A stretch of 49,721 bases of DNA, taken from positions 1 to 49,721 of the forward strand of contig QPGO01000345.1 in the NCBI GenBank assembly GCA_008632985.1, read 5' to 3'. The translations under genes and the position numbers were made by a program. Below the pieces are notes generated by a model. It made no database searches. It was not told where the DNA came from and saw nothing but the letters and a program-made list of their open reading frames with translations. The number at the start of each line of letters is the position of its first letter. The stretch's first letter is position 1. This stretch comes from Psammoneis japonica. Taxonomy: Eukaryota. Positions 9,151 to 32,661 of this stretch are shown here, one piece after another.

Positions 9151-9356
9151 TAGATGCATGATTCTTCTCAGGACAAGTGGGAATGCACACCTCAGTAAAA
9201 GAAACAACTACATGACAACATCCGTGTACATACTGTTACAGATGTCTACCTTTCTTTTCAGCGGAAGTACACAGGTCCAACTGGGTATTCCGGGAAGGAC
9301 ATAATGTAGCGGTTTTGCAGCTTCTCTTCGCTAACACCAGTGAAACAACAATCGGT

Positions 9357-12092
9357 TCAGTGCGAAGCCCAGAACATGCCATCTACGTGCTCCGGCCGAT
9401 TAAAGAAATCGGTCATATGCTGAGCAATCTTTTTGCTGTTTTCGCATCTTTCTTGCTCATCGACAAAATCAAGCTCGCTGAATACATTGTAGATCAAAAG
9501 AACAATCAGCATTTCCCGTGCATACGCTTGGCTTCCCTCATCACCGTCATGCAGGGATGGACACTCGGAAATCATATCTTTGATCAAAGGTCCCCAGTCC
9601 ATTGACTGAACCAAATAATCCTCCAGGAACTCGTTCACCGATGCACCAACGACCACCCAATTTGTCATCAGAGTCGTAACTTCCTTGCCAATGCTGTCAA
9701 CCAAGGCCGTCGCATTGAAATCATGGGTGAATGAGCCGGACAGTCCACCAATCTGGCGGGATAAGAAGCCGGGCGTTTTACCGAGACCGTTCGCCACCCC
9801 AGAAAAGTCGCGGCCATATGTGTATTTGAAGGACGTACACATTTCTGAGGGCAGAACGTCGTTTGGTTTTAAGTGTCTTCTTTCTTTGGACGAGCCACGT
9901 TTACGCAATATCGATTTTAGGCACGCCAACGTTGTCTTGTGTGACGACTCAGCCTCTTTCTTAGATTCGCTTAGCGGTTGCAGTACCTTGGTGACCTTCC
10001 CAGTCGACCGCAGAGAATCACCGATTGCAAGAAGGAAAGTTTTAGTGAAATGACCTTTTGAGGGCTTTGTGCCTCGCCAGATTGCTTTGGATTTGCTGAA
10101 AACATCAAATATCCCATCCGCTACCGGGTGTCGTTCCATAAGGCCACGTTCGAGAAGTGCATGGTATAAATGGACGCATACGCAAGCTTGGTTCAAATGA
10201 TTTATCGTGTTTGCTCCAGACTTGATGGATGCAACGTACGTGAATAACAAAAAGTTTCCAGCAACAAGAGGGTTCCAAAAAGCCTGCAGTCTAGTGGATA
10301 AAGAACTTCCGGGATTTCCCATCGGTAAGGTATCATAAAAACCCAGCCATTTTTCTGGGGATTTCCAAAAGCTCTCCTTTTCTTTTATCGCCTTCACCTG
10401 TTTACTGAATGCCTCATATGCAAGCTTCGCTTGAATCGCAGTCCGTTTAAGATCAGAATTCCCTTGGATTGTCAGGAAGCCCATTAGCATGGCATGCACA
10501 GCGAATGAAGCCGATAGCGGCACAGCGCTATCACCCCCTGTGAATAGTTCCATTAGCTCTCGAAACAAAGGAAAGAGAGACTCTGGAATGGCTTTTGATT
10601 CCATGCGCTTCCGAAAGGAGTCGGTTCCGCATAAACGCAGGAGCTGGGGCAAGATCGTTTCGAGCAGCAGCCTGTCCATGCATGCTTCGCTCGTTGACTT
10701 GGCTGGATTTCGGTTTTCGTCCCAGGATGGCCATGTTGAATTCGGCTTGGGGATGCCTTCCGGCAAAAAAGACTTGAGACCTTGCAAAAGAGAGTGCGTA
10801 TGCAAAATGTTGTTGTTCCCGCTCAAGGCGTTGAAGTTTTCCAGCCACCTGTTACCGCGCAAAATGCGGGAGTTGCGACGACACAAATCTTTGAAATTTT
10901 CCGCTTCCTGTACTTCGGCTTTGGTGGAGTCTGGCCCTACCTCGAAAACAACTTGCAAAACGACTATTGTGGAGGCTTTGTTGACTACATCCACAGAAAT
11001 GCCAGATTCACGAGCAAACTCCTCCGCCAAGTTTTCTTCAGCACAACTTTCAGCATTCAAGGGAGATCGAAACCCAACCTCGATACACTTGGCTATGAAA
11101 TTAAGTACCATGTACGGATTCTTAGCAATTCGCTTTCGGTCAATCATTTCTTCAAGCTCATCAACAAGTTTGGTGTTGCGCCAGAGAGCTGCCGCGAGCA
11201 CATGATAAAACGATTTTGACAATTGCGGGCAGTCTACAAAAAGAGACGCTTCCATACTATGAACGTCATCGATAGCCACGTTGATTACAGCAGCCACTTT
11301 CATCAATTCAACGACAGTCTCTTGTTGGTCGAGCATCCCATGTTTTTTACCGCCAGCGCTACGATCTAGGTCTTTCCTCTTACTTTCTAGCTCACTCTTG
11401 AAGTGTTTGAGATGGCGCATGGCATTTGCTAGTATGGCATCGACGCCATAAAGATAACATATCGCGTGAAATGATGTCGATCCCTTGATAAGATCGTCTT
11501 CGATCGAATACTTGCGCTCCGATTCTTTCGGCTTTGTTGCTTTGTAAAGCTCTTCTACGTCTTCGCTACACTGGGAAGCTTCTGCTGGAGAGTGCATCAC
11601 TTCTTCATCGGCATCGATATCATCGTGCAACTCCAGGGCATCAAAATGATTTCCAGCCACTTCTGCTTCTTGATCCTGTTCACCATTGTCTTCTTGTGTC
11701 TTGGCCGACTTGATCTTTATTCCCCCATCCCCAACTAGTTGATGACTCAACTCTTGTGCCTTATGCAGTACACCCCTGCAATACTTTAGCATCGCCAGCA
11801 TGTAATCATGACCATCATCATGACTCTCCCCATACGTTGCTGCAACTTTTTCTCTGAGTTGAATAGATTCCTCAAGATTCATAAGAAGGTCCTTACTAAC
11901 CCGCAACAACATGCTCGACTTTGCTGCAGTGCGCCGCTGTTGTTTCTGTTGCTCTACAAGTTTGTTCAAGATAAACTCTGACGCATTCCCCAGGTCATCA
12001 ACATACTTTAAGGAAAAATCGGAAGGAAGCAGCCGAGCAAGACCATCGCGAAAGGCCCGAGTTTTCTCCTTGTAGCGAGCGTAAGAAGTCAT
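9357..12092 (-). CDS. 911-aa protein with DUF6604-like N-terminal region, function unknown
   Basis: Long intact ORF. The N-terminal YARYKEKT..F, HDYMLAML..C and NHFDALEL pattern resembles DUF6604 proteins (recalled, not searched). Normal Tyr and TpA content. Confidence 0.75.
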   Translation of the reverse strand: MTSYARYKEKTRAFRDGLARLLPSDFSLKYVDDLGNASEFILNKLVEQQKQQRRTAAKSSMLLRVSKDLLMNLEESIQLREKVAATYGESHDDGHDYMLAMLKYCRGVLHKAQELSHQLVGDGGIKIKSAKTQEDNGEQDQEAEVAGNHFDALELHDDIDADEEVMHSPAEASQCSEDVEELYKATKPKESERKYSIEDDLIKGSTSFHAICYLYGVDAILANAMRHLKHFKSELESKRKDLDRSAGGKKHGMLDQQETVVELMKVAAVINVAIDDVHSMEASLFVDCPQLSKSFYHVLAAALWRNTKLVDELEEMIDRKRIAKNPYMVLNFIAKCIEVGFRSPLNAESCAEENLAEEFARESGISVDVVNKASTIVVLQVVFEVGPDSTKAEVQEAENFKDLCRRNSRILRGNRWLENFNALSGNNNILHTHSLLQGLKSFLPEGIPKPNSTWPSWDENRNPAKSTSEACMDRLLLETILPQLLRLCGTDSFRKRMESKAIPESLFPLFRELMELFTGGDSAVPLSASFAVHAMLMGFLTIQGNSDLKRTAIQAKLAYEAFSKQVKAIKEKESFWKSPEKWLGFYDTLPMGNPGSSLSTRLQAFWNPLVAGNFLLFTYVASIKSGANTINHLNQACVCVHLYHALLERGLMERHPVADGIFDVFSKSKAIWRGTKPSKGHFTKTFLLAIGDSLRSTGKVTKVLQPLSESKKEAESSHKTTLACLKSILRKRGSSKERRHLKPNDVLPSEMCTSFKYTYGRDFSGVANGLGKTPGFLSRQIGGLSGSFTHDFNATALVDSIGKEVTTLMTNWVVVGASVNEFLEDYLVQSMDWGPLIKDMISECPSLHDGDEGSQAYAREMLIVLLIYNVFSELDFVDEQERCENSKKIAQHMTDFFNRPEHVDGMFWASH

Positions 12093-12329
12093 TCTAGTGC
12101 TCGTTGTGCTCTGTTTGGTACCGGTATATTATTTCACTTGTATCTCGACTGATTACGTTATAGATCGTATTGGTCCGTTATTGCACTACGGAGGTACAGT
12201 AATACAATAAGCTTGCTGCGTCGACGAAATGAGACTGGCCGCCATGGCAATGGAGTGTGTTCACAGTTTTCATAATTTCGCACAGTGCTACCGGTGTAAG
12301 GTCGTACGCGTATGTTTTATGTAAGCCTG

Positions 12330-13000
12330 TGCTGCTGGTGGGCAACCCACATTGTGCAAGAGAGAACATTTTGATGGCAACTCAACTTGCAACATCTCAA
12401 CAACTCCATGTGCATCCTGGAGGAGGGCTCTTGCCCTCTGAAACAATGCAAGTTGTGCAAGAGGATGTGTGTGCTCTGTGTGCCATCCAAACTGACCCTG
12501 ACCCAACTCTGCATGTTGTCAAAAGGGGGAAAAGGCCAGCTGCAGCAGCATGGGGCACTCAAGTTGGCACACACCCAGCCCAAGAAATTGTCTCATCAGG
12601 GTGTGGCACTCCTCTCCAGGAGGTTCAAACCTTTTGACATGTCTCAAGCACCTGCTGCCATGCACCCCCCCACCTCAACCCAGCCAAGGTGTTGTGTAAA
12701 AGTGCTGGTGCAGACACCCGCTGTGCACAATCAGCTTCACTTTGTGGGTCAACGATGTGGACCATCACTCCCCAGGTGCTCAAAGCACTTGATGGATTCC
12801 ATCAGAAGGTGGTGTGTCATCTTTCTGACAAGCAGGAGCCACGCAGTCTCTCTTGCCTTCCTGATGCCAGGAGAGGGTCACACAGAGCTTCTTTGTGCAG
12901 AGATTGCAGGCTTGTGTTTGATTGGAAGCTGCATCAGGTCCCACAGAGGGTGCACTTGTGGAAAGCATTTCCACCCAACCAGCCACCTGGATCTTTGCAA
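12330..13000 (+). mobile_element. Degenerate non-LTR retrotransposon, post-RT C-terminal fragment
   Basis: H..NSMCILEEGSCPLKQCKLC, LEEVQTF, and LCGSTMWTITPQVLKALDGFHQKVVCHLS (cf. LINE motif LYGSETW.....LKALEGFH.RVAR). Confidence 0.55.
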
Positions 13001-15199
13001 AGGTGCAGAGAGGCTGCCAGGGTCCTCCGCCGGATGCCAGCTCTGGTGTGGAGGAGGAAACACACAGGAGCAGGGGAGGAGATTTTGTCTGCAATGGAAT
13101 GGGTGTGGCTCAGCAGCAGTCTAGCGTGCGGCCCAGGGGGGTGCACCTTCTCTGCTTGGGGATCAACATCCCCAAGTCACAGGCATGGGAGGGGGCTCCA
13201 GGCTCTGGTGGCGAATTGCACTGTGAAACGGTGGGAGCACACTCATGCCGTTGTGGCTGCGGTGTGGTGGCCACAAATTTGAAGGAAGAATGTCGGCCGA
13301 CAAGGGGAGATGACCTCATTGCCCATTGATGACGCAGCTGAAAGTCATCCCCTGTGTTGCCACCATTGAACGCGCCTGAGTTGGCATTTGGAAGCAAGCT
13401 GCTGTTGCTCATTCTTCCAAAGAGCTTCAGCAGCAAGCCAAACACATGGGCTCAAGTTCAAAAAACAGGCTGGCATGAAGGGCCTCCATGAGAATCCCAT
13501 TTTGCAAATGTGGGTTGGCCTGCGCATCTTTTTGCTGTCCTTTCCACCTGTGTTTCAGTGTTGAAATTGTGTGCAATCTGAGAATTTTATTTCTCCCTCC
13601 AACACTGAAGCAAGAGCTGTTTCTTTGTGATGACGACTGTGCCAGCAGCTGATTTGTCTTCAGAATTTAAAGACGAGGAAGATTTTGAAGAACATGATGA
13701 TGCTCCACCCAAAATTGAGAGTGAAGCTTCTGCCCAAGTGAATCAGTGGGGGTGTCAAACGCCACACAATCGGATGAGATGGCAGCACCTGAGGTGCCGC
13801 CTGACACCGCCCCCCCCCTCTTGTCACTTCAGAGGAGCAACCAAATTGTGCAGAATGCAGGGAACAGCTGGGTGAGTTTTTCAAATGCAAGTTTATGATC
13901 AATCAAATGCCTGAATGTGGACATTGCGACAGAACTCACCAAGAAAAGGCAATGACACAGAGTTTGACGTTCTTTTGCAATCTCTGCGTGTTCTTCAGAG
14001 CTGACGGCATTGTCCTCAGTGGTGGCTCAAGTTCAAACAATCAAAGGGCATTGTTCCTCCTCCTGTCTGCAAAATGCAATGGATGTGAAATTGATGAAAT
14101 TGTGAAAGCAGTTGATGCATCAAAACGTGTTGAAGACACCCTGGCAAAAACAGCCTTGGCATCAACTGGCAACAGTGTGAGGCTCAATGCAATTGCTTGA
14201 AGTGAATCTCTCAAAGAACATTTACATTCTGAAATTGGTGTGTTTTCTTGCAAGTTGTGTTGGACACCACATCAAGCAAAACCAAACACTGTTGATGAAA
14301 ATGGGTTTAAGAAGCACTTGTGTGGAGAAAGCAAGACAGGCGCATTTGATTTGTCAAGTTTGTTGTTTAAAACTTCCTCCAAGGGAGTCACCCATCTTTT
14401 GTTTTGGTGCAAATGTGTTTCAAACGCTTGCATGAAAACTTGCACGAAGCATGGGAATCTCATCTTTACGAACAAACTGAGACGGCAATGGATGATGACG
14501 CAGACGACACAACAATGCCGGATCGTCTGAGAGGTGGCAATGCCAGTCATGCGGCGCATCATGTTTTGGGGTGGTTGATCAACAAAGTGCACAATGTCAA
14601 ATTGAGGGGAGCAGACAAAGAAAGTCTTCTTGCCTTTGCAGCTTTCAACGCTGTGAGCCTGGAGACTGCACACGATGCCAAGATGCTGACTCGTTGACAA
14701 CAAAGATTGCAAGCGGCAAAAGCTGGTTTGCATTCATGTGCCTTTTAGAGGCAACATTCATGGCAAATTTCAATGCCAGACAAGTGATTCATCACCAAGG
14801 ACAGGCGCTAAAGAGGATTTTGGAAACAGCCTGAAAAAGCACACCTTTGCGCCAGAAGTTTTTGAAATGTGTGCCGCCCTCCTTCGACTTAAAACAGAGA
14901 AAGGGAATGTGGCAAATGTGCCATGTCTTCCTGTTAAATTGTCACTCAGCACTCAAATCCAGTGACTTGTTGAAACTTGTTTGCAATTCATGGCCAATCA
15001 GCAATGCCAAAAGGTTGGCAACGCAAACTTGCAAAGCTGCAGCACACACACAAGGATGGTGCAAAGTTGTGAATTGCAACTCTGCGTGCACTTTCACCAA
15101 CTGCAATGTACGAAAAAATGACACCGCCACAACACCAATTGCCACAAAATAGATCACTCCATTCTGCAACATTTCCAGGGCTTGAGCATTGCATTTTGC

Positions 15200-17850
15200 T
15201 TGTTGCTTGCCATCACGGCTCTTTTCCAATGCAAGCCCTTGGTGCATGCATTGGAATGTGCCATGGTGGAATGGCTGGTGTTGCCAATTGCACCACGGAC
15301 ATGGCCAAAATGGTGCTTGCAACAATCTTGGTTGGTGCAGCAGAGGAGAGTGGAACATCCCTTGCCAATTGTGCGATGGCACATCAGGGATGCAAACCCG
15401 CAACAGCATCACCTGAAACTGTCTGGTGTCTCATCTGGAATGCAGCACTTTTTCTCTGCAGTCCCATCAGGCCCTGCCAACAAGTCCTGCCATTCTTCAA
15501 TCCATTTGAGGGTGTGCCAAGCAGCTCATCTACGATGGCTTTCCCATTTCTTGGAGTTGCCCAAACCCTCCAATCCTTGTCCCTTCTTGCAGGATCATGT
15601 GAGTTGCAAACATCAAACCAACGATTCATTTTGCAGCACAACTCCCTTGCCTTGCTCAAGACATCAGTGCGCTGTGAGAAAGGGACCTTTGGGAAATCAA
15701 TGGTTGGGTTGCTGCACACTTGGTCAATTACTTTGACCATGGCATTGCTCAACACACAAGCCACAGGCTTGACCTTCATGCGTTGAGCGCGGGACGCTTT
15801 CTTGTTGAAAATGCTTGGACTCAGGTTTCAATGTTCAGCCTGTGCAAACTCATCTCAACAAGACCCAACGGCTTCATGCACATCACCCAAAGTTGAGAGA
15901 TCCATTGGTCGTCCCCCATTGGGTGTCCAAGACAAAGGTTTGTTTCTCATTGCATTCCCAGTGCGCTTCAACAAGTGCAACATGGGCTCCCCGTCCATGT
16001 AAGATTCACAAGCAATCATGCAGTTTCCATCTGGCCTGTGCTGCTCCAACACATCTTGTGGAATGCATTCATTGGCCGGCTTGTTGCACCATCCATTGGT
16101 GTAGAAAACATTCACCCCAGCACAATCAGACACCTCCATCTGCTTCATAATTCCGTTTTCTGCAAGTGCCGCAGCAACCTGATCCATTTGCATCAAGACA
16201 TCGCATGCCTTGATTGATGGATTGTTGTGTGCTCCAGCAATGAAGCTCATGTTGCAACTTGGGTTCATTGATGCAGCACAACAAATGCTGTGTTCTTTGT
16301 TCAACACTGGCAATTCTAGAACTTTCTCCATCTCGTTTCCCTTGCCATGCAGTCCTTTCTCTTCTGTCAACCTGTGCGTGAAGCTGTCAAACAGCCAATT
16401 GACAACATCCATGTTCTCAGGCAGAAGTGCACTGGCTGTCTGATTCTTCTTGTTGTTGTGACGTGCCAACATCATGCCAGGAAGACAAGTCATGGAATCA
16501 AATGCAACCACAACGTCGTTGCATCCTGAAGACTTGCCAAGGTTGTTGTTCGAACACTCTTCACATTGATTTTTCATCATGCCAATCATTTCAAAGCATG
16601 GCCCATCCTCAGTGTCCCCAACAAAATCTGTCATCACCTTCCTGATGCATCTTGGATTGGGCAGGTGCAGCACCTTCTGAAGGGATTCGTAGACCCGACA
16701 GTTTGCATCTCAAAGCAACAAGAGAGAATGCAACAGAACCTCTGTGGCGAACACCAAACACCTTTTGACACCATGCCATCCTTGTTGAATTGTTTCCCTT
16801 GGATGACTTCAAACTGTGCGGCAAGTGTGCGACACTGCAAGGACTCTTCACCAAACCTCTCTTTTGCAATCCATGATGCCATTTCCATCCTGTCCTTCAA
16901 AATCTTTATGTCCATTGGATTGTCAACCTCCTCCGTTGTCTCAGCCAATTCAATCTTGCTTTTAAGCTGCTTGATTTGAAGTTTGAGTCGATTCTTCTCT
17001 GCCTCAGCATGAGCTCTGACTGTCTTCATTGCTTCGGCTGTCTTGTCCACTCCCAGCATGTGTGCCGCCATGCTGTTCAGATGCATGTCAGGCTTGATGG
17101 GGCGGGGCTTGTTCATCTGACACTGAACAGACGCCATTGACTTTGACAATGCACTGCAGCTGCAACACAGTTTAGATTTGCTGCAACCAGAGGTGCAACT
17201 CGAAGACCAAATCACAAGCTCCTCTGGTGAAGAACGATCAATGTAAAATTTTGAACAGTCCTTTCTGTGGGCAAATGCACTAGAGAGCGGAATCTTCTCT
17301 GGTGTCTGAGCAAGGGACACAGTGTGATCTCCGGACCGCTCCTTCATTTTCTCCAAGTTGTCTTGAACAGACATCAATGTTGCTTGCTTGCACTTCTCTC
17401 CACCCCAACCACGGCATGGCATTGAGTCAACATGAAGCTCGTTGGCAACAGGTGCAACCGGAGCTTTCTCCTCAGCAGTGGCGTTTCACCTTGTTGCATG
17501 ACTTCATGGCAGATTGCGCAATGTGAGCATCAACAGACTCAACAAGAGAATCACACAAACCATGGGCCAACAAGTTGATCCAGAATGATTCAATTTGAAT
17601 GTCGGCTTGAGATTTGGGTGCATCGGGATCGAGTTCAAATTTTAATGAATGGCAGTGCCTTTCATTGTCATTGACCTTTCTGCAAAATGTGGCCAAGCCC
17701 TTGGATCCAGGTCCCTTCTGGATTGCATCCGATGCATCACTTTTGGTCATTCCATCTGGAATGCTGCTGTTCTGGAGCACACGGTGAATGTCTCCAGCAT
17801 TTGGCCATTTCCCATCAGAGCTCACCAAGACGTGTGCCATCAAAAGAATG
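15200..17850 (-). mobile_element. Degenerate P-element-superfamily transposase
   Basis: Ordered motifs on the minus strand: YESLQKVLHLPNPR (Y..LR..LP), VVVAFDSM (first catalytic D, cf. FDEM), EVSDCAGVN (second D), MKVKPVACVLS (cf. MKVKLA.QV.S), NRWFDVCNS (cf. FD..NS), TNQDCCKHHFGHVRG (cf. QD.LE..FG.IR). Confidence 0.7.
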
Positions 17851-17959
17851 AGAGCATTGTTGACTCTTTTTTTTAACAGGACAACTGCTTTTTTTTCTTT
17901 CCTGCAGCAGTGCCCTTTTTCTTGCTGGATGCCATGGCTGGACTGCACAAACAAAGATG

Positions 17960-18746
17960 ATGGTTGATGATGTTGGTGTGAGAAAATTGGAAATTCAAAT
18001 GACAAGTGCTGAATCACGTGAAGAAATTGGAAAGTGGCAACACTCATTTGCAATCCAAACTGAAGCAAAAAAAGGAGGAATGGAGCAAAGAAGAAGCTGC
18101 GACAATTTCCATTTGCTCTTGCCTTGTCAAATGCTTAAAAACAAGACTGGAGCACACATGTCCCTACATTGTAACGCTGATGGCGAAACAGTTGAATGAG
18201 TTGGCAACGATGATTTTGGAGGCCATTCTTGTGGGGACAAATCATGCCACTCTTGGACCATTGGAACGGACCGCCATTGGAGCTGTCTGCGCATCAACAG
18301 AGTTATTTCTCTTGACAGATGAAAGCCAAGATTGTGCAGACTTGTGAGAATTCTTGGAAGACTGCATGAGGGAACTAAATGTGCTTGCATCCAGCAACAT
18401 TTTAACTTCACCACAGTCTCTTGTGAATGGTGACACAGCTGTTGCAATGTCTGCAGCAGCCATGTCGTTGGGTGGAGCTGTGCTGAGCTCAATGCAGCCT
18501 GCAGCAAAAGGAGCGGCTGCTTTTGTTCCCAACAATCCAGTGACGCAGTTTGCCAACAGCATGTTTTCATCAACCGCACCCAACACAGCACCCGGCACAA
18601 GTCCGAGTGACTGCAAAGCCACTCCACCAGACACAAAGGATCTTCCACCCTTCCCGAGTGACATCAAACAGCCATGGGATGAAAATGACAAGTTGAAAAG
18701 AGAGCCTGTCCCTGCCATGATGCTGCGACACTTGCATTTGTCATGA
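17960..18746 (+). pseudogene. COQ9: Ubiquinone biosynthesis protein COQ9 pseudogene (hypermutated copy)
   Basis: LKTRLEHTCPYI...ERTAIGAVCASTELFLLTDESQDCADL*EFLEDCMREL matches the COQ9 C-terminal pattern R..L..IY.STEL..L.D.S.D..DTW.FL..R. It has an in-frame stop and Y->C changes. Confidence 0.7.
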
Positions 18747-18750
18747 TCCT

Positions 18751-19720
18751 CTACAACCAAAGAAGCCAAGCCAGCATGGGTGTCTGTTTTCCCATGTGGT
18801 CTCTTGTTTGACTGACCTTCACTGCCCATTCTCCAAAGCAAGTGGACAGGCTTGACAGTTGGGCATTGTTGAGAACCCTTGGCATGACCCACGTGACTTG
18901 CACTTTTTTGTCCACTTGGTCCACACTTCCCTGGATCAATCCCAAGCTGAGAGCGCCCTCATGATTGCCAGCTCAACCTGATCCTTGGGTGTGTGGATGC
19001 ACTCCGCTGCATCCTGAAAGGAAAGAGTCCAGTCAAAACCAGGTTGCTCAAACACCACATTGACCAAGGCCAGAAGGGCAATTTTTTCTTGCAACAAAAA
19101 GAGGCCCAATTGGAAAGAGTGGGCTGCTTTGTAATTTCAGAAGCGTGCTTCTCCAAAATGGCTTGAAACTGCAGCACGTCTTCCTTGGCACTGGCGTGCA
19201 CAAGTTCCATGAGCCAAGCATTGGGAGTGTTTTCCAACTCGTTGAGAATTGGCATTGTGACAACTTGGCCAAAGTTGTAGACACCGTCTCCTGTCAAGGC
19301 TGCCAAACTGAGATTGGCAGCCAACTGGAATTGCTCTTGTTGTGAGAGCGTGTCGAGAGCCATGCAGTTCAAGCAACTGAGCACTTTGTGATGACAAGCT
19401 TCCAGTGGACCAACCGCCTTGCAGTGTGCCATGGCACACTCATGATGAGCTGAGTGAACAACCCTCGTGTCCTGCACAGGGTCCTGCAACTCTTTGAGAG
19501 TCTTGCTGTTGCTCTGGATGGTTTTCTTGATTTGCTGCAGCGCATTGTTGTCTGCAGTTCCACTTGCCTCCACAAGTTTGAGCAACAAGAGCAACAATTT
19601 GGATTCCATGTAGAGTGAGGCTGCTGGACTGAGTTGTTTCTTGTCCTGCAACAAATTCTTGAGAACTGCCTTTGCACAAGTGCCGTCTTGGTTGGAAACA
19701 AAAAATGAAACTTGACTGGC
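18751..19720 (-). pseudogene. PSMD13: 26S proteasome lid subunit RPN9/PSMD13 pseudogene (hypermutated copy)
   Basis: LSLAALTGDGVYNFGQV..PIL..LENTPNAWL and RALSLGLIQGSVDQVDKKVQVTWVMPRVL match RPN9 PCI-region motifs. Frameshifts are present, and the YY pairs read HH/HC/CH. Confidence 0.85.
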
Positions 19721-20239
19721 AATGCCCCCCACACCTGCTTGTCTCAACCACACCTGTGCCCTCCTTTCCAGCTCCATCACATCTCTTGGCTCTTGTGCCC
19801 GTCATTCACCTTGCCCCCCCCCCTGGCACCACACTCAATCATCAATCACCCCAGTGCCAAGACCCCACTTGTGCTTCTGGCTCTGGCTCGCTCCTCTCCC
19901 TTTTGCTCACACTCACCCTTTCCTTCGTTGACCCCGCTGCTGGCCCCAAAGCAGCTGCTGGATTTTGTTCCCCATCCAACATGCCATGCATCTGGTCCTC
20001 AGAATTTGCCCCCAGCTTCTCATCTGACAAGGCTGCTTCCTTTGCCAAGAGGACCTTTTTTGCCCTCCTGCAGCTCAACTTGCTTCTGATGAACAAACTC
20101 AAAGTGTGCTCTTGTGCTTTTGCTGATGATGCCCTGTCCCTCCTGTCACCCACCTCCTCTCTGCTGAGGACATTTGCTGCAACTTTTCATCATTTTGAGG
20201 ATCATTTTAAGTCCAGTCAAATCTCTTCCACCGGGCCTT

Positions 20240-21140
20240 GCATTTTGCCAACATGTCATTGTTTGCAAAGCTTGAGTGCCAAAATTGTCAAGATTGGCTT
20301 GCCCTTCCCATGGACTGAGATCCTGCTCTTGTTTGGCATTCAACAACTCATTTTGCTTGATGGCATGTCATCTCGTGAGGTGGCACAGGTGGTGTTGCCA
20401 GTCAAGTCTGGAGGTCAGGGCATGTCAAATGCATGTCTCTGGCCTGGATTCCATGTTGCTCCTGTGTTTCTGACTGTGGGGAGTTGCCTGTTTGCTTGAC
20501 CCATCAGGACACAGCTGTTGAGACAGACAGCAGGAGCACTTGTCTGCAAAGTGGCAAAAGCTTGCCAAGCAGATCATGCAGTTGATGGAACTTGGGGTTT
20601 GGGGCTCCATTGCACCATCAATGTGGTGCAGCAAGTCTTCACTTGCAGGGCGTGTTGATTTGGCATGCAGTTGACTCACAAGTTCTTTTGTTGTCTTGAC
20701 AGCGCATCTCCCCTTTTTCTTTCTGGGGTGGCTGTCCACCCCAAAAATGGGAAAAAGCTGGAGCGCCATCTTTTGTGGCACTCTTGAGGCAATGTTGCCC
20801 TGTGCAACCAGTTTCTGTGTCAACTGCTGACATTGGTGTGCAGCAATCCTTGTTTGTGCACAAGCCAGTCAATGGACTGCAATGACTGCAGTCGCATTTG
20901 AAGCATTGTTGCATGCTTTCATGTTGTCATTTCTGTTTTTGCACCACACTGCTGCTCTCTTTCTTTCAGATGTCATCTCTCAAGAGTTTCTTTCTTGTCT
21001 GGGGCCCACGGTGTGGTGTTTGGTGCTGCATGTCCCAAGGTTTGTGGCTGGCATGTGCACAGGACCACTCAGGCACGGATCGCCTCCTGTGTGTTTTTTG
21101 TGGATTCATTGCACCCTGACTTGCAATGACACACTGTAAA
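20240..21140 (+). repeat. Hypermutated copy of the repeat at 22450-23385
   Basis: Collinear with 22450-23385, for example gtcaatggactgcaatg vs gtcaatagactacgatg, and ccctgtgcaaccagtttctgtgt vs ccctacgcaaccgatttctatat. Confidence 0.9.
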
Positions 21141-21289
21141 ATGCACATGTCCAAAGTTGCTTCTGGCATTGATTGTTCAATGGGCCAGCCCAAGAGGCTG
21201 TGGGACAAGGTTGGTGCACACCTGGAGCTGAGGACACTGCAAGGCCACTCTCTTCCACCCTTTTGTCATTCTTGTAAAATGACACAGCA

Positions 21290-21560
21290 GCACTTGCATT
21301 GTTGCCAGTTTTTTTGCTTGTGTGGGGTGGACTCCAATCACATTGTCAAAGTCTGCCTTGGTTGCTCCCATCTTGACAGCTGCCACAACACCTTGCAGCC
21401 ACATTGTTTCTCCGGCTTGATCTGTTGCCAGCAGAAGAACTCCGGCCATCTTGTCTCAGTGTCAGTTGCTGTCTGAATGAAGACAATTTGATGTGGTGTG
21501 CATTTCTGACTTTGGAAAGGAGTGCATCATTGGTCAAAATTTAGTCATGCATGCTGTCAC
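21290..21560 (-). pseudogene. Glutathione-reductase-like C-terminal (dimerisation domain) fragment
   Basis: [40 protein letters not shown] matches the GR signature [27 protein letters not shown]. Confidence 0.75.
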
Positions 21561-22291
21561 ATTTTTGAGCATCCTCTTCTGCATGCCCGACAGATGCAGT
21601 TGCTGCAAACACCCCACAGATTCTTCAACATTGCAAACCCACTCAAATCAAAGAAATGACATGACTCTGTTGAAAGCTCTTGTTCTTGTGCAAGATTGAT
21701 GTGGCCACAAAGCCAAGACTTGCACCCTGTTGCTGTTTCAGTTTCTTGGGTTTTGATTTCTTCATCCAAGAACTCTGATGGGATCTTCGATGCTTTCTTT
21801 CGAAACCCTGACAAGTCATGTGTTGCTGTTGGATTGGAGTTGCCACTGTCGTTCACATCCATCTTTGCTGTCATGGCGATCGATCAACACTGCAAACTGC
21901 AACTGCGGTGCAGTGTGAACTGTCGGCATGTTTGATGTTTGAGCTGCTTCGAAGTGTGATGACCTCGATCTCCAAATGGGCTTGCGCTCGCTCGCTCGCT
22001 CGGCGGCAGTTTTCTGCGTCTGTACTTGCGTACGGCTACCGTTGACGAGTTTGGTGGCGGCGGCGGCGGTTTTTGCTTTTTCTAAGTACGGTTACCGTGA
22101 AGCGTACGTAGGAATTCGTAATATTTTTGAAAGTACCAAGATCTCACGAATGTTCTACATACGAAGTGATGGTATCGATTATACAAACATACACAAAAAT
22201 GATAGTGATTGAGAAAATTGGCAACGGTCACGACACAAACCAAAACTCTCGAACGCTTTTTTCTTTCGCGCTCTTCTTTCGCTCACAACTC

Positions 22292-22587
22292 GTCGTCTCG
22301 CACGATGTGTTTGTTGTTTGCCAAGCAGGAACGCAGGCGATCGCCCAGGATGGCTCACCCTTCCTGTGGATAATAGAAAGTCTTCTCTTGCTTGGCAGTT
22401 ATACAACTCATTTTGCTTGATGGCGTGTTGTCTCTCTTTTAAAACTAGTCGTCTCGCACGATGTGTTTGTTGTTTGCCAAGCAACGAATGCCGCGATCGC
22501 CGAGGATGGCTCGCCCTTCTTCTGGAATAGATTGCTCGCTCTTGTTTGGAATTCCACAAATCATTTTGCTTGATGGCGTGTTTTCTC
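22292..22587. repeat. Two-copy tandem repeat, ~150 bp unit
   Basis: gtcgtctcgcacgatgtgtttgttgtttgccaagca...tcattttgcttgatggcgtgtt occurs at ~22292 and ~22448. Confidence 0.85.
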
Positions 22588-23385
22588 AATCGGCGGCGTA
22601 GGTGTTGCCAGTTAAGTCCAGAGGTCGGGGCAAATCGAATGCGTCTCTCCGGCCTTGAGTCCATGTCACTCTCGTGTCTTTGAGCGTAGGAAGTTGCCTG
22701 TTCGCTTGACCCGTCAGGTCACGGCTGTTGAAACAGACAGCAGCGTTCGTCTGTGAAGCAGCAAAAGCTTGCCAAGCAGATCATACCGTTGACGGAACAC
22801 AGGTTTGGGGTTCTGTCGTGTCATTGACATGATGCGGTAAGTCTTCACTCGTAGGGAGTGTTGATTTAGAACGCGGTTGACTCGCAAGTTTTCTTGCTGT
22901 CTCCGTAGTACGTCCCCCCTTTTTCTTTTTTTTGGGATGTTGATCCACCCCGAAAATAGGAAAAAGCTTGAGCGCTATCTTCTGATGGCGCTCTTGAGGC
23001 AACGTCACCCTACGCAACCGATTTCTATATCAACTTTTGACGTTGGTGTGTTTCAAATTTTGAAACACTCTTTGAAACTATTCCAATACAAGTAGAAAGA
23101 CTAAAAGTACAAGATAGCAATCTTTATTCTTGCGTAATGTATTCCGTACGTACGTCAATAGACTACGATGGCGGTCGTAGCGCTTGCGATGTCGTTGTTT
23201 CTGTTTTAGTACTACACCGCTCCCCTCTTTCTTTCAGATGGGGTCCACGCTGGGGTGGTCATTACGGGATGCCCCCAGGCTTGTCATCGATATGTGCTGG
23301 ACTATTGCGACGCTAATCGCCCGCTTCCCTCGGGGTTATGCGAGCCATCTCAATTACAAAGTAGCTAGCTACGATGCTCTGTAGA
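22450..23385 (+). repeat. Unmutated (TA/CG-retaining) copy of the repeat at 20240-21140, probably TE-derived
   Basis: Aligns to 20240-21140 with an extra AT-rich insert of ~65 bp at ~23051-23115. Its reading frames are broken and the family was not identified. Confidence 0.8.
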
Positions 23386-23519
23386 CAGGAACGTAATATT
23401 CGAAATTCCCGAGCGTTCCGGGTTTTGCTCGTGAATGAAGACAGTAAAGAAAACAAATCTAGAGATAGTGCTATGAGATAGCAGTCAACACCCGCAATAC
23501 ACCAAATGAAAAAAGTCTA

Positions 23520-23945
23520 ATGGAGTCACGCAACGTCGTGTCCACGCCGATTTCTAGTTCCAATGGATGTTGTCCAAACCAGAGCTACTTCCGATACCGG
23601 TATCTCAACTACGCCAACCCACTTTCGGAAGAGATGGTGGGCGATTCAATATTCTTTTTGAATGTTGATGGCATCCTCCACGCGATGTATGTCATTGTGA
23701 AATACATTGCTGAGCATGATGCAAATCATCCGTGGCACAGGTATTCTTCAAAAAACCAAGGGCGGTACAAGTTCCAAATGGACTTAGCGCTAGAGATGAT
23801 GAGCCAATGGATCAAGCTTGATTGGAAAGACACGGGAATTGAAGAATCAAAACCAAAACGGATGAGGAAACTTGGGTACATTCCATGCGACTGCAAAGAA
23901 TGCTTCTTATGTAAAGAGGGACTTACCCATGGCATCGGTGGAAGC
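23520..23945 (+). mobile_element. Putative piggyBac-like transposase C-terminal fragment
   Basis: HAMYVI...W..YSSKNQGRYKFQMDLALEMM..WIKLDW...YIPCDCKECFLCKEGLTHGI resembles the Cys-rich tails of diatom piggyBac-like transposases (from memory). No catalytic core is present. Confidence 0.4.
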
Positions 23946-24789
23946 GACGACCGACTCCTCATGACGCAGCAGCAGTTGTTTGCCAGAAGGAAAGAAGCAC
24001 TGCAGCAACTCATCCTAGATGATGTAGATCGTGTTACAGCAAGATTCGGGACAATACCGATGGCGACGTTCCCTCGGCCCAGCTTGATGCACATTGTCAC
24101 AAGACGAGACTCTGGTGCAGCGCTTGCGGGACGCACGGAGCGGCCATTTGCGAATCCTGTTGGCCGGACTACAATCACGACATTGAGTAATGCGATAAAA
24201 TTCAATTTCATATTTGAAAACTTGAAACAGTCACTTACCAGTTGCCAATATCGTGCGACACATGGAGCCGCGCCTAACGAGACCAGCGCAACACAAGATT
24301 TGTCGGTCGGTGCGTCAAAACAAAGCACCCTTATGCTTGCAAAACAATTCCCAGAACACAGAGCACAACAGCATTAAGTCGTATTCTCGACTTTGGTGGG
24401 TGTCATAAAATACAAGGGTCGCTCAAGTACGGAGAAAGCTTCGAAACATAGGATTCATTCGCAGCGTCATGGCGCCGCTGTGATAGCGCACCCCCCTTAC
24501 ATCACGGTATGAACATCTCCAGGAGCACCAACAAATGACTGAAGTATCCCTTATATGTTAAACAAACAGAATAAATCCTGAATATTCATACAACATCGGC
24601 AAAACGTGTGAGAAACGCAATAACACAACTCCCCCAACTCGAAAAATACCGAAGCAACGCGCACAAATCGCTGCATGTAGCACCAAACTCACATCCGAAT
24701 TTACATTGACACACCTCTTCACCTCATCAATTCCAAAAAACAAAACGCAAAGCTTGTGTCAAGGGTATATTGAAGTTTATGTTTCAAAA

Positions 24790-25315
24790 GGAACTGCAAG
24801 ATGAGACGCTGTGGTTGCGACGCTGGAGCAGTGCGGCTTCTGATGTCATTGTGGCTGTTGATGTTGTGTGTTGTGTGTGGGCAAAAATTATGCGCGTGCG
24901 CGCGATTCGGGAGAAACAAAGAACGAAGAAGGATGGAACTTCTCATTGGACTTGCGCCACCAACCAACCATGGTTGGATGGTTGAGTGTGTTGTCTTTGG
25001 TGGCTGGAAGAACAGGAAGCCCCGCCTGTCCCTCATCATCATTTTGGCACAGTGGAGATTCCCAGCTGCAGAGCCTTGGGTGTCACAAAAAAGTGACAAA
25101 GAAATTGTGCAGCTGCTTTGGCTGGGATGGTGGTTGTGGACTCTGTTGGGGGTTTCTGGCGATGACACAACAAGAACTGTGGTTGGGCAATGCAAGCCTT
25201 GTCTTGGGTGGACACAGCACCTTGTTGTCAGACCAAGATTGTGCCGCATCAGTCATGCTGCAGAAACAAGGCAGACAATGATGAGACAGTGCGCAAGTCC
25301 ACAGTTGCACTGCAA
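24790..25315. other. Small TpA-depleted island (domain C)
   Basis: About 520 bp with a single TA by my reading (~24889), TG/CA-rich, between normal-composition flanks. Confidence 0.7.
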
Positions 25316-25439
25316 TGTACGTGTTTCATATCAGTGCTCAACGATACCCGTGCGTGCGTGGTCGGTTCGCGCCACGCATGCAAAAAAAGACGTCGACATT
25401 CTCTCGCATCAATAAATATCAAACATCAACAATTTCACC

Positions 25440-27827: not shown

Positions 27828-29499
27828 TTCCTTTGAGGTCAGCGACGGTGCACATCCGCGGGGCTCCGCACTTTTATTCTATCACGGCGGATGTACGTGA
27901 TACGCGATTGGTATACCGCCCCACCACCAATGCATCCAAGAAAGACCGTCGCCTCTGCCACACAGACATTTCATTGTTTTTCATTCCGGAGGCATGCTTT
28001 ACTTGTTCCATTTGTGGGAGCTACATTGGTCCAATCCGCGGGCACTACACCGCGACGACGCGGCGGCGATGCACGTGCCTATGGCACCGCCCCATCACCA
28101 CCCATCATGTATCCAAGAATTCCTTTATCTCGTTTTTGCTTACCCTCTGACGTGCCGATCCAACGTCCAACGGACGAATGTAGTGGCGCTCCGTCCTTGT
28201 CCCCATCCGCGGTACCGCGTAACGTGCAGATTGATGCCACATCTACTTCACCTTCTGGCTCTCCGACTTTTGGTCCTATAGTCTGTGGCCTGCAGGACTT
28301 GTGCCCTCGTCAGCTTGTCCCGCAGCATTCTTCCGTCATCTGTTTCAGGCGGTACACCGAGTGAAGTTCTGTACGGAGGCCCCAGTGACGAACCTTCTAG
28401 TGCTATCCCTCTGACGTGCCAAGACATTCTGCAACCGGCGAATCTAGTGTGGCGCCGTCTTTGTCCTCATAACAGTACCAAGTGACGTGCCTACACTATC
28501 ACCCCTGGCTTGTTTGGGTCCCTTTGAGTTGTCGATGATGAACTATGTTCCTCGGATGCAAAATGTGCACACGTACGTTCCAAACTGTTATTGTTTGTTT
28601 TACCAGTGCTTCTTTTTTTTTCTAACACGCGTGGTGTGCTTTTGGCATTACAATTTTCCCTGTACAGTCCATCTCCCTCCACTCTGAGGTTACCACATAG
28701 GAATCTCTTGTTGATTCATCATATGGACTTGCGTGTGATTCGCTTTTTCAGCCGCGGCAAGAAGAGGCATTCGTGTAGAATGTCTTCTGCCGTGAAGTCG
28801 CCGAGTGCATTGTCATCGACCGCCGCCGCAGGGCACTCCCTCCATCCAAAGTATGTAGCCCCGAAAATTTCCTCTCCCTCATCTGGCACTCATTCAATCT
28901 CAACATGCTTTTCTCCTTTTACAGGAATCCCATACTTGCCGTTACGAAGACATAAAACAGACAGCGGCTTGTGTTTTTGAAGAGAAGCTCGCGCTTCCTC
29001 CTCATCCTTGTACAGTATGGGTGATAGGGCTTCTAGCGGATCCTTTCTTTGTAAGTATCTGAGCCATTGTTGTTGGTGCCGTTGCCATCGTCTGCCTCGT
29101 CTTCATCTCCATCGAATTCGACCTCAACTTCGTGTTCGGTTTCGCCTCCGTACCCGTCTCCCGATAGCTGTTCATTGTATGCGTTCAGGATTCGCTGGAT
29201 TCCTTTTAACTTCAGGAACTTGGTGAGTGCATTGTATGGCCAGTTAGTTGCCTTTCAAGCCCTGCAAGAATGGCCGGTTGTATCTAATGATTGCTTCTCC
29301 TAGGAATACTGCAGCTCACCTTGTGACAGCAAGTCAGAAGCGAAAAGGGAGGGATGATAAATTAAATTACTGGTTGCATGCACTTATTCAAATTCGAATT
29401 TCTGTCAAATTTTGAGAGGTCACCGACATCTGTCCTCTGTTACAAAAAGAAACTTAGGCTGAAGGACTGAACCTCCATGTCCAAACCAAACTCATTCCA

Positions 29500-30027
29500 T
29501 GTCAAACACATTCAAACTGGCAGCACCTTTGTCAGTCAGGTTCCTTGATTGGAAAATAAGCAAAGTGTTTCTCCCCTCCAGAAGCCAGAAAGTTGGCAAC
29601 AACAACATCAATTCTCTTGCTGGTGATTGAAGCGACCCTCCCTGTGAACTTTTGGGCGCGGGGGGGGGGGGGGGGGGGGTCTCCAATTTTCCATTGCCTG
29701 TCATCTGTGGGTGGTGAAGGCCTGCTTGTGCTCTGCTCACCTTCTTGCTTTCCAGCCTCCAACTCTTCAGTGGCCCTTGCCTTGAATGACCTCTGCCTTT
29801 CTCACTGAACTGGTTTTTCTTCTGCTCAGCAACCAATCTGAGGCTGTGCTTCTGATCTGGGAGATGCTCTGAAAAAAGCACCACTCTCCCAGCCTGCGCC
29901 ATCATGAAAGACATTTCTGGCAACAGCTTGCCTTGTGCCAAGATTTTCAGTGGTGTCATTTCTGAAAAAATGACATGTTGACATCCCTCTCAAAGTTTGA
30001 GAAGTCTGGTGGGTGAGTTGACACTGC
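29500..30027 (+). repeat. Direct repeat copy 1 (~530 bp, partner at 32662-33231)
   Basis: tgtcaaacaca...ttccattgcctgtcatctgtg...gttgacactgc. The 3' ~340 bp are nearly identical to 32885-33231. Confidence 0.9.
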
Positions 30028-30249
30028 TCTCTCCAGCTGCTCTGAGGGGCCTGGGCCTGCAAGAGCCTCTTCCTCTTCCTCGCTCAAGAGCACTCTTTGT
30101 GCCCCAAAGGCCAGTCTCAAAGGGTTGAGCACAGTTTGGGTGGCTTGCTCAACTGGAGCTGTGGTGGCAGAGCAACCTCCAGGAAGAAGCGCACAAAAGC
30201 AAGAAGCATGGTTTGTGGTGACAGAGCAGCCTCTGTGAGGAGTGCAGAG

Positions 30250-31460
30250 CTGTGCAGTGGCCAGGTGTCAGCCAGCAGAAAAAGTCTCTTCTGACAAAGT
30301 GTTTGCAGAGAACCCTGGCGGCATGGTGTCAGTCAGCAGAAAAAGTCATTTTTGCCAAAGTGTTTGCAGTGCTGTCTTCTGAGCTTGCTTTCCACATCCC
30401 AAGGAACACTCAAAGCATTGAGCGCAGTTTGGGTGGTGGTTTGCTGGTGGAGTGTGGCTGTGGCACCAGAGCAAAATTTAGGCAGCCCATGCAGAGAGGC
30501 CCAGTGTCAAAGTGTTGGCCACAAGAAAAAGTCCCTTCTGCCAGACTTTTTGCACTCTCAGCTTCTGAGCCCACACTTTGCGCACCAATGTGCAACCTCA
30601 AAGGCTTGGGCACAGCTTGGGTGGGTTTCTTTTTGGCTGTGGTTGCACTGGCAGAGCAGCCTCTGAGTGTGCAGAGAACCCCAGTGACTGTGGTTGCACT
30701 GGCAGAGCAGCCTCTGAGTGTGCAGAGAACCCTGGTGAAAAAGTGTCAGCCAGCAGAAAAAGTCACTTCTGCCAAAGTGTTTGCAGTCTTGTCTTCTGAG
30801 CTTGCTTTCCGCATCCCAAGGAGCCATCTCAAAGGGCTGAGCATGGTTTGGGCAGTGGTTTGATGGAGTGTGACTGTGGTGCCAGTGCAAAATTTGGGCA
30901 GCCCATGCAGAGAGGCCCAGTGCGGTCAAAGTGTTGGCCACAAGAAAAAGTCACTTTTGCCAGACTGTTTGCACTCTCAGCTTCTGTGCCCACATTTTGC
31001 ATGCCAGTGTGCAACCTCAAAGGCTTGGGCGCAGTTTGGGTGGGTTTCTTGGCTGTGGTTGCACTGGCAGCAGAGCAGCCTCTGGGTGTGCAGAGAACCC
31101 TGGTGGCAAAGTGTGTCAGCCAGTGGAAAAAGTCACTTCTGCCAAAGTGTTTGCAGTCTCATCTTCTGAACTTGCTTTCCACATCCCCCAAGGAACACTC
31201 AAAGGGCTGAACACAGCTCAGGTTGGCTCTTTCTTGACTGTGGTTGTGGTGGTGGCAGAGCAGCCTCTGTGTGTGCAGAAATCTTGTGTGTGATGACCAG
31301 GTGTCAGCCAGTGGAAAAAGTTGCTTCCAACTGATGCAAATGGTTTGCAGCCCAAGCTTCTGAGCACACTCAGTCTGTCCCCAGGCACAATCTCAATTCA
31401 TTGAGGAGCAAGTGTTGGCCAGCAGCAGAAAAGCCCCTTCTGACAAATTGTCTGCACTCT
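30250..31460. repeat. Degenerate tandem array (~370-430 bp higher-order units with short subrepeats)
   Basis: Recurrent gtgtcagccagcagaaaaagtcacttctgccaaagtgtttgcagt, cagcccatgcagagaggcccagtg and ggttgcactggcagagcagcctctg. Confidence 0.85.
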
Positions 31461-32661
31461 CAGCTTCCTCCACACACCCAAAAGCACAAACTTCTTGAGG
31501 GTCATCTTCTTTTTTTTGGCTCAACATTGCCCCAGCCTGACTGCAGGTGAGTCAGACTTGATCTTTCTATCTGGACAATGGACACCCCAAGTCATCAGCT
31601 GGGAGTTCTGACCAACTCACTCTGGCCCAGGGGTGGCCTTAAAGAGCATTCATTGTGGTTGGCTTGGTCCATCCTCTGTTGTTTTTTTTTTGGCCTGACA
31701 TTGCCCCAGACCAAGAGCAACAAACAAATCAAACAGTTGTCAGCTGAGAGTTCTGGCTGGCTTGCTCACTGCGTGATCCAGAAGCAGACTTTCAAAGTCT
31801 GCCCCTTGTTGAAAGAATTCATTGCAGCTGCCTTCTTGACTCATCTGGAGTTGTTTTTTGGCCCAAAATTGTCCCACGCTGCCAGCTGAGGGGTCTGTCC
31901 AACTCACTGTGTTGTCCCTGGGGGGCTGACTTTGAGAGCATTCATTCTTGTGGTTGCCTTGGTGATGGACACCCCAAGTGCAACAAACTGACCATGCAGT
32001 TGTCAGCCAAGGGCTCCAGCCAATTTGCCAATTTGCTGTGACCCAGGGTTTGTGGGCTTTAAGAGCATTCATTGTGACTGCCTTGGTTCGTCCTGCGGTG
32101 TTGCTTGTTTTGGCTGTGTGATGACACAGCCCAACAGTGGATGCAACATGACATTCCCTCTTGCAAGTGTTGAGCACCTCAAGAGGCAATGAAGTTTGCT
32201 GACATGCAGCAGCTGCTTGCCTTGTTCTTTCCAACCAAGAAGCACATGCAGTTTTTGGAAAAATGGGAGAATTCAACCACACTTCCAATGTTCTGCAACA
32301 ACAGCAGATGGGACACATTGCACCAACAAATGCTGAGCTTTGGGACAGACAACCACAGGCTGGCCCTCAGAAAGGCTGGGAAAACAAGTGCTGCTGCTTA
32401 AGAGTCATCATCTTTGCACACTCATGCTCTGAGGCATCTTGCTTCTGCTGGGATTCTTTCATTCAAGTTTGGTCACAAAATGAACCCCAGGTGAGCTTTG
32501 CTTGATTTTTCTTCTTTCTGCTGGCAACCATCAACAACTTGCCAATTGGAGCATGCAAGTGATGTCACTCCTCCACACATCAAGCACAAAAAGACCAGCA
32601 GTCTCATCAACTTCAAATGTTTCAACAGCTTCTTTGTGCAGCCATTGACCTCCTCTTTTTG

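Follow-up and report, generated by a model that had tools for sequence, protein, structure and literature searches.

Tract-limited replacement of TpA and CpG by TpG and CpA in a Psammoneis japonica contig: a converted and a spared repeat copy, and a Copia-type element as a clock

Introduction

Irreversible mutational silencing of invading DNA is, to our knowledge, textbook material only for fungal repeat-induced point mutation (RIP) and for APOBEC-type editing. RIP changes C:G to T:A mostly at CpA, thereby makes TpA and lowers the GC content, needs a duplication, mutates both copies and depends on cytosine methyltransferases of the RID or Dim-2 type; its usual thresholds are a TpA/ApT ratio above about 0.89 and a (CpA+TpG)/(ApC+GpT) ratio below about 1.03. 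Editing by APOBEC and ADAR enzymes leaves strand-polar clusters on retro-copies, in sequence contexts of its own. Here we describe another signature in a 49,721-nucleotide stretch of DNA from Psammoneis japonica (contig QPGO01000345.1 of GenBank assembly GCA_008632985.1, positions 1 to 49,721 of the forward strand; the window in what follows), in which whole tracts are depleted of TpA and CpG (TA and CG below) and rich in TpG and CpA, and in which two neighbouring copies of a repeat have met different fates, one being converted and the other spared.

The closest described case is that of Bigelowiella natans, reported in a preprint (Mettrop et al., bioRxiv 10.64898/2026.01.13.699255) which is the only account of TpA-specific hypermutation elsewhere that a full-text search of the literature found. 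According to its main text, 231 of 302 new mutations lie in two integrated virus regions, where all but one are A-to-G or T-to-C changes and all of those are at TpA; the TpA rate in the mutation-accumulation lines is about 1000-fold above background, and new mutations occur in only some of these lines. The same text counts 124 clusters poor in TpA and rich in CpA+TpG, proposes an ADAT2-like candidate enzyme, and makes no mention of CpG, of long terminal repeats (LTRs) or of borders. Methylation-driven CpG decay, together with repeat silencing of the type known as methylation induced premeiotically (MIP), is described for Tuber and Ascobolus (PMC4165359), and deaminase-type hypermutation is described as a defence against mobile elements (APOBEC/ADAR; PMC4866542).

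The window matches the B. natans signature and goes beyond it in four respects: the change is saturated, it is coupled with loss of CpG, its pace can be read from LTRs, and its tracts have borders. As in the main text of that preprint, TpA becomes TpG or CpA by strand, the change is limited to regions and far above background, and inserted or foreign DNA may be the target. Change at TpA only is found at 6 of 6 LTR differences and in the interior of a Copia-type LTR retrotransposon (Copia below), and 24 of the 34 TA of the repeat pair have changed in this manner, while regional confinement is seen in sharp borders and in an LTR contrast of 0 against 6. Unlike B. natans, however, the window is saturated, with TA at 0-16% of expectation; its targets are mobile-element and pseudogene tracts and Copia, with no viral hallmark among the 112 window open reading frames (ORFs) scanned with Pfam; and CpG is also converted in most tracts. 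Furthermore, the B. natans mutations were seen arising in mutation-accumulation lines, whereas the process in the window is read from sequence alone.

The remaining systems share less with the window. Like RIP in Neurospora and other Ascomycota, the process has riddled mobile elements and duplicated genes with irreversible, dinucleotide-specific transitions, but TpA is destroyed, CpA and TpG are raised, the GC content does not change and one copy of a repeat has been left unconverted. Like methylation-driven CpG decay and MIP as described in PMC4165359, it turns CpG into TpG or CpA in transposon-rich and presumably silenced DNA, but such decay leaves the loss of TpA unexplained, and CpG loss in the window goes along with a TA-specific process and trails it. 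Unlike APOBEC and ADAR editing, it has hit both strands equally, at two self-complementary dinucleotides, including DNA that is not of retroelement origin. The explanation that we prefer, with a probability of about 0.6, is hypermutation in place, limited to tracts and made of two separable parts, with the converted copy within such a tract and the spared copy a short way beyond its border. Under this explanation nearly every TpA and most CpG of a tract would have become TpG or CpA by single transitions on either strand.

Results and Discussion

The repeat pair shows a strongly one-sided change (feature coordinates are collected in Table 1). A local alignment of 20259-21138 with 22470-23383 is collinear, with 617 matches, 205 mismatches (140 transitions and 65 transversions) and 150 gap columns, and after collapse to purines and pyrimidines 20241-20841 and 22450-23051 are 92.8% alike over 609 columns. 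The 53 CG of the right, spared copy face 21 TG, 21 CA, 3 retained CG and 8 other dinucleotides in the left copy, and its 34 TA face 13 TG, 11 CA, 1 retained TA and 9 others. Retention of CG and TA is thus 4 of 87, against 80 of 106 for TG and CA (54 of 67 TG and 26 of 39 CA; Fisher p = 7e-26). The aligned columns of the left copy hold just 7 CG and 1 TA, one of which stands opposite TG or CA, so that the asymmetry of CG or TA against TG or CA between the copies is 66:1 (binomial p = 9e-19). The original prediction of a one-sided conversion of TA and CG to TG and CA is therefore borne out by an alignment with context counts (42 of 53 CG and 24 of 34 TA, the reverse once), and all seven strings that it gave as examples of spared and converted sequence can be read in this alignment; differences running symmetrically between the copies were also looked for, and the asymmetry was found instead.

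The two copies do not appear to be a simple linked duplicate, as had been proposed. Ninety of the 205 mismatches fall within CG or TA of the spared copy and 115 elsewhere (68 transitions and 47 transversions), which means that the copies are old and not a fresh duplication. Arithmetic on the alignment gives a divergence of about 15-18% at non-target columns, and this divergence, together with a left end common to all three window copies of the repeat, is what independent 5'-truncated retroposon insertions would leave. The contigs of sequencing run X1 that were placed on 5000-24999 of the window (three runs are available, from one sample and one study) give a similar picture. Single-copy contigs have a word depth of 57-74, while the bin 22342-23008 in the spared copy has a summed word depth of 6970, about 100 times the single-copy value, with at most 14 distinct contigs at one place, although summed word depth is not a copy number; the corresponding value for the converted copy is 389. 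The contigs at the spared-copy position align to the spared copy, and depth increases toward the common left end. The spared copy is a member of a multi-copy family, and from their shared end and truncation the window copies are probably minus-strand, 5'-truncated retroposon copies inserted independently, tract B as a whole being a probable accumulation of retro-copies and element remains. Neither is it necessary to suppose that the spared copy arrived later, since it sits in normal DNA past the tract border, where TA is back at 22023 and the partial and the full spared copy start at 22275 and 22431, 250-400 bp beyond that border.

The outcomes in the converted copy bear on how the change came about. 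The 34 TG and 32 CA are interleaved, with 31 runs against 34.0 expected (P = 0.27), and adjacent converted sites have the identical outcome in 32 of 60 cases, so that sites were resolved one by one, on either strand; 28 of the 72 target-site transitions of the pair are A:T to G:C. The strand-polar clustering left by APOBEC and ADAR is thus absent from the copy. If ancestral CG or TA were converted independently in different paralogues, double changes of TG to CA between them would be predicted, and 12 are found in the main repeat pair; a three-way alignment of the converted, spared and partial copies contained too few columns to give any direction of change. An excess of TG and a negative AT skew at 19.5-22 kb were also considered as the product of strand-biased conversion, and this was rejected because the spared copy is equally biased (67 TG, 39 CA) and the conversions themselves are balanced.

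A balanced outcome is difficult to reconcile with editing of RNA or cDNA before integration, by ADAR- or APOBEC-like enzymes acting on elements and retro-copied genes, in which case tract borders would be insertion borders. The composition of tract B, with its 5'-truncated gene copies, retroposon-like repeat and transposase remnant, would fit such an origin, and Copia might have inherited its interior in the converted state. Single-strand editing, however, gives one polarity, whereas TG and CA are mixed here in one copy and without runs; the Copia LTR differences arose after insertion; the edge of tract B carries a 235-bp margin converted at TA only; and unrelated pieces are joined in one continuous, saturated tract of 9.7 kb. 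We therefore consider editing before integration unlikely, though it is the strongest of the competing explanations.

The direction of change can be read from a gene fragment in tract B, a 5'-truncated copy of the proteasome lid gene Rpn9/PSMD13. Pfam PSD13_N is matched at 18962-19801 on the minus strand (E = 1.3e-25), and by tblastn the copy lies in three frames with two frame changes against all 8 homologues. Opposite the 9 Tyr of homologue P0002 it has 4 His, 3 Cys and 2 Tyr, and opposite the 17 Arg it has 4 Gln, 3 Cys, 2 Trp, 1 His, 3 Lys, 2 Arg and 2 others; both Tyr remaining in the copy are opposite Tyr of P0002, and the alignments to structures in PDB show the same pattern. Across the 8 homologues Tyr stands opposite His or Cys, and Arg opposite Cys, His, Gln or Trp, and the reverse never occurs. 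Every Tyr codon contains TA, and CG is part of four of the six Arg codons. The replacements thus correspond exactly to TA becoming CA or TG and CG becoming TG or CA, and it follows that the state without TA and CG is the derived one and that the gene copy is dead. An unconverted parent of the copy is not among 7 homologue matches, the best of which is 51% identical. Other X1 contigs match the Rpn9 stretch at 89-111 differences per kb, and one of them has TA and CG in its flanks and probably represents the intact gene.

Purging of particular dinucleotides occurs in some viruses and phages, and a similar composition might arise if functional sequence were under selection against CG and TA, perhaps as an escape from a nuclease or sensor. 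The Rpn9 copy, however, is broken by truncation and frame shifts and shows replacements at conserved Tyr and Arg, and the Copia polymerase has lost conserved Tyr to Cys or His at 11 of 17 columns, neither of which would be expected of sequence kept for its function. Selection of this kind is in our view the least probable of the explanations considered.

Conversion is confined to tracts. A dinucleotide table of the whole window reveals three large tracts, A, B and C, with an observed/expected ratio of 0.00-0.16 for TA, 0.00-0.58 for CG and 1.4-2.3 for TG and CA. Tract B at 12550-21780 contains 149 CG, 43 TA, 1029 TG and 981 CA, and tract C at 29520-39300 contains 76 CG, 18 TA, 1058 TG and 1112 CA, with TA-free gaps of up to 1541 bp. 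The GC content in the tracts (0.44-0.53) is like that outside, and is higher in the Copia interior (0.55-0.60). The borders are sharp to tens of bases, at 12322, 22023, 29455 and 39583, and end about 230-300 bp short of the flanking gene starts; at the left border of tract B, for example, the last CG is at 12309 and the last TA at 12322, with the DUF6604 gene starting about 230 bp away. At the right end of tract B normal CG and missing TA coincide, so that this margin has been converted at TA only. The tRNA and Rfam families searched for are absent anywhere in the window, so that no RNA gene marks a border, and there are no inverted repeats of at least 40 bases in it, also in purine/pyrimidine space, so that the tracts are not flanked by terminal inverted repeats. 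The residual CG and TA are not spaced with any consistent period, and no nucleosome-scale periodicity appears in the residual CG.

These features also decide against RIP or another pairing-dependent process from which one copy had escaped. Two observations might recommend such a process, namely that the window encodes a protein of DUF6604, a family found mostly in Ascomycota, and that the Copia LTR differences on their own can be read as CpA-to-TpA. Nevertheless, members of a multi-copy family are spared, while the Rpn9 pseudogene and a glutathione reductase fragment are converted although they have no second copy within the window. RIP as the origin of the tracts was rejected on the dinucleotide indices, which are the reverse of those that it leaves: TpA/ApT is 0.02-0.08 and the substrate index (CpA+TpG)/(ApC+GpT) about 1.98-1.99 in the tracts, 0.02 and 1.98 in the converted copy, with TpA/ApT at 0.86 in the spared copy; many of the changes, moreover, are A:T to G:C, and the GC content is unchanged. 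In the converted copy and the tracts there is thus no rise of TpA, no enrichment in AT and no mutation of all copies, and a pairing-dependent process seems to us scarcely credible. The contrast with RIP had been predicted, and goes deeper than the indices, since it lies in the direction of change, TpA being destroyed. The prediction that targeting follows place and not pairing is also supported: with members of a multi-copy family spared, non-repeat gene fragments converted and borders so sharp, the results favour targeting by position along the chromosome, not by repetition or pairing. A sequence need not be repeated to be converted, nor does repetition suffice for it. Chromatin domains, which the prediction invoked, are one conceivable basis of such targeting.

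One further repeat lies within the tracts. Tract C holds a 540-bp direct repeat (29491-30027 and 32653-33231, 3.2 kb apart), of which the first 170 bp are about 80% alike and the remainder 98% alike, and tandem units of 180-230 bp are arrayed at 30240-31330, between its arms. The part that is 98% alike must have been copied or homogenised after conversion, and 7 of the 19 double differences in this repeat are TG-CA.

Copia provides an internal clock for TA loss. Its insertion is marked by a perfect 5-bp target-site duplication (39578-39582 and 46704-46708), and its two LTRs differ at 6 places in all, where the 5' LTR has TA and the 3' LTR has TG (5) or CA (1). Over the 276 bp of the pair there are 0 CG changes and 0 other differences, and one LTR has lost 6 of 16 TA. 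Because LTRs are identical at insertion and no background difference has accumulated alongside the 6 TA changes, TA loss is fast and at least partly later than the insertion; simple arithmetic puts the rate of TA change at tens to hundreds of times above background. Copia is the youngest target, and since its TA are converted and its CG are kept, TA conversion occurs without CG conversion. Along the element, the 5' LTR and a leader of about 0.65 kb are spared (TA density is normal over 39583-40485), and conversion starts about 0.7-0.9 kb into Copia and affects its interior and the middle part of the 3' LTR. This pattern suggests, as a working hypothesis only, that conversion is linked with the transcribed body of the element. 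Copia abuts the right border of tract C exactly. The 660 bp to its left are free of TA, and past its right end both TA and CG are back after 25-45 bp, some 300 bp before the sulfatase ORF; Copia either inserted at the border of tract C or acts as a border.

The same clock weighs heavily against slow, ordinary decay, in which CpG would be lost passively in methylated DNA and TpA removed by a bias of repair or composition. That CpG depletion differs between tracts resembles an effect of age, and there are Copia relatives depleted of CpG only (L006, L012, L042, L044 and L045). On the other hand, an LTR that has lost 6 of 16 TA against 0 background differences, in an element that has lost most of its interior TA, leaves little room for slowness, and we know of no passive bias that acts on TpA specifically and reduces it to 3% of expectation. 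Slow decay is accordingly an improbable account of the tracts.

Comparison with relatives of Copia confirms the direction and separates the two losses. The polymerase ORF of the window Copia, used as a query against metagenome contigs, gave 49 related loci with an amino-acid identity of 38-81%, of which 37 matches were tabulated for Tyr, TA and CG. Most of these have 3.7-5.5% Tyr and a TA observed/expected ratio of 0.51-1.12, against 0.8% and 0.11 in the window copy, and 7 TA are left in the reverse transcriptase stretch of the window Copia, against 44-64 in relatives. Fifteen normal relatives share 17 columns of conserved Tyr, and the window sequence reads Cys at 8 of these, His at 3, Tyr at 4 and Phe at 2. 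It retains Arg at 21 of 23 columns where Arg is conserved and agrees with 261 of the 302 conserved columns. The control relative L001 still has Tyr at 14 of 16 such positions, and its 57 TA stand opposite 16 TG, 15 CA and 6 TA in the window.

Three relatives carry a TA-only scar, at L029:227-1615, L031:99-1487 and L009:1653-2759, with TA observed/expected ratios of 0.16-0.29, CG ratios of 0.70-0.79 and a Tyr content of 0.6-0.9% in L029 and L031 and 2.7% in L009. Among the 17 conserved Tyr columns, 13-14 are Cys or His in L029 and L031, and 7 of 14 in L009, and because the choices between Cys and His differ among the window, L029, L031 and L009, the conversions must be independent. The opposite state is found in five relatives with normal TA and a CG observed/expected ratio of 0.09-0.22 (L006 0.09, L012 0.16, and L042, L044 and L045 0.21-0.22). 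Loss of CpG and loss of TA therefore take place separately in nature.

The contig data also allow the quality of the sequence to be considered. Both changes are the transitions expected if heavily modified C and A were misread as their transition partners, and the two frame changes of the Rpn9 copy resemble indel errors, so that an artefact of sequencing or assembly might be suspected. Yet two X1 contigs of ordinary depth (66-74) show 0 differences from the window over 6655-9458, mostly tract A, which argues against a base-calling artefact; paralogous contigs carry alternative TG and CA states, the multi-copy contigs doing so at 17391/2, 17768/9 and 17838/9; and the TA-only signature is also present in the independent metagenome contigs L029 and L031. 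We regard an artefact as very improbable. At 6392 and 16433, both single-copy places in tracts, the sole X1 contig has CG where the window has TG (from 40 of 1643 variant rows), which could be a CpG-to-TpG polymorphism or an assembly difference.

Taken together, in-place hypermutation of tracts would comprise one part that turns TpA into TpG or CpA (A:T to G:C), presumably by adenine deamination in a T-A context, and a second that turns CpG into TpG or CpA, as might follow from deamination of methylated cytosine. Both chemistries seem likely. The first part is the more complete, the wider and the faster; Copia, the 235-bp margin of tract B and the metagenome contigs L029 and L031 show it alone, while the second varies between tracts and is absent from Copia. 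Several considerations weigh against this explanation. Run X1 may be the very sample that was assembled into the window, in which case its agreement is not independent evidence, and the Rpn9 frame changes could be assembly indels. For the repeat pair the direction is borrowed from neighbouring tract sequences and from contig rows in another tract repeat; for the LTRs it is taken from the Copia interior, as two LTRs alone leave it open and a RIP-like CpA-to-TpA change in the 5' LTR would look alike. The interior may itself carry conversion from an ancestor copy, so that the 6 LTR changes are the only ones certainly later than insertion, and since tract B is made of 5'-truncated gene copies and mobile-element pieces, conversion could partly have preceded their arrival.

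It is tempting to go further and speculate that a single tract-targeted DNA-editing defence erases both CpG and TpA, which are both self-complementary pyrimidine-purine steps, through two coupled enzymes or one ADAT2/3-type deaminase acting on both A and C. Its recruitment would follow the transcribed bodies of mobile elements, as conversion in Copia reaches into the transcribed part of the 3' LTR. Such a defence would be a mirror image of RIP in a eukaryote that is probably marine or otherwise environmental, and would be widespread because the L029 and L031 Copia copies carry TA-only scars independently; we consider this extension possible but doubtful. Whatever its agent, the end state of the process is visible here as kilobase tracts without any TA, which therefore lack TAA and TAG stops as well as codons for Tyr. 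The Copia LTRs time the loss, targeting follows the tract and not homology, and the scar is also present in environmental Copia elements. The window thus offers concrete borders at which marks of the tracts can be tested and a clear signature by which the enzyme can be sought, and an enzyme that edits adenine at TpA in DNA would be of interest for base editing.

Additional features of the window

Table 1. Positions of the tracts, repeat copies, Copia element, gene fragments and flanking genes in the window
Feature	Position	Strand	Remarks
Tract A	5218-9080		TA almost absent, CG moderately depleted
Tract B	12323-22022		9.7 kb; TA almost absent; CG loss strong at 19.4-21.8 kb, moderate at 13-19.5 kb
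Tract B right margin	21788-22022		235 bp; CG normal from 21788, TA absent until 22023
Tract C	29456-39582		TA and CG nearly absent; ends exactly at the Copia insertion site
Converted repeat copy	20241-21138		Inside tract B, in a 929-bp TA-free gap (20208-21137)
Spared partial repeat copy	22275-22434		131 matches and 25 mismatches to 22431-22587
Spared full repeat copy	22431-23383		CG and TA normal; member of a multi-copy family
Copia-type LTR retrotransposon	39583-46703	+	RVT_2 at 3e-20
Copia 5' LTR	39583-39858	+	276 bp
Copia interior	40544-46478	+	TA-only conversion: about 30 TA left, 430 CG kept; pol split over several ORFs
Copia 3' LTR	46428-46703	+	276 bp
Proteasome lid Rpn9/PSMD13 pseudogene	18784-19747	-	5'-truncated, residues about 84 to end; three frames, two frame changes
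Glutathione reductase C-terminal fragment	21294-21422	-	Last ~43 residues; just upstream (minus strand) of the converted repeat
P-element-like transposase GTP-binding insertion domain, weak match	15387-15827	-	Pfam TNP-like_GBD E = 6e-4, below the curated cut-off
Small TA-free, TG/CA-rich stretch	24890-25317		429 bp, outside the large tracts; overlapping ORFs without family match
MFS transporter, split in two ORFs, and LRR_6 protein	2368-3325, 3626-4711	-, +
DUF6604 protein gene	9357-12092	-	911 residues
Sulfatase	47002-48843	+

Besides Rpn9, tract B contains the end of a glutathione reductase gene, which is matched by Pfam Pyr_redox_dim at 21180-21455 on the minus strand (2.7e-6) and by glutathione reductases in PDB (8.6e-9); a PDB search with the ORF at 21560-21883, also on the minus strand, gave no match. 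The genes of the window are long, uninterrupted ORFs, whereas those of B. natans are intron-rich, and the flanking genes for the DUF6604 protein, the sulfatase, the MFS transporter and the LRR_6 protein are unconverted. The closest protein to the sulfatase ORF in the collection searched is 55% identical over a partial match, and the single named relative of Rpn9 is a diatom, the relatives of Rpn9 and sulfatase otherwise being mostly environmental sequences. Over 9461-12180 and 18460-19723, run X1 contains a second version of the DUF6604 region, 12-17% different and equal in depth to the window version, and this second version predominates in run X2 (59-121 against 8-10). A mixture of two related genomes in the sample, strongly diverged haplotypes or a different type of library for X2 may account for this.

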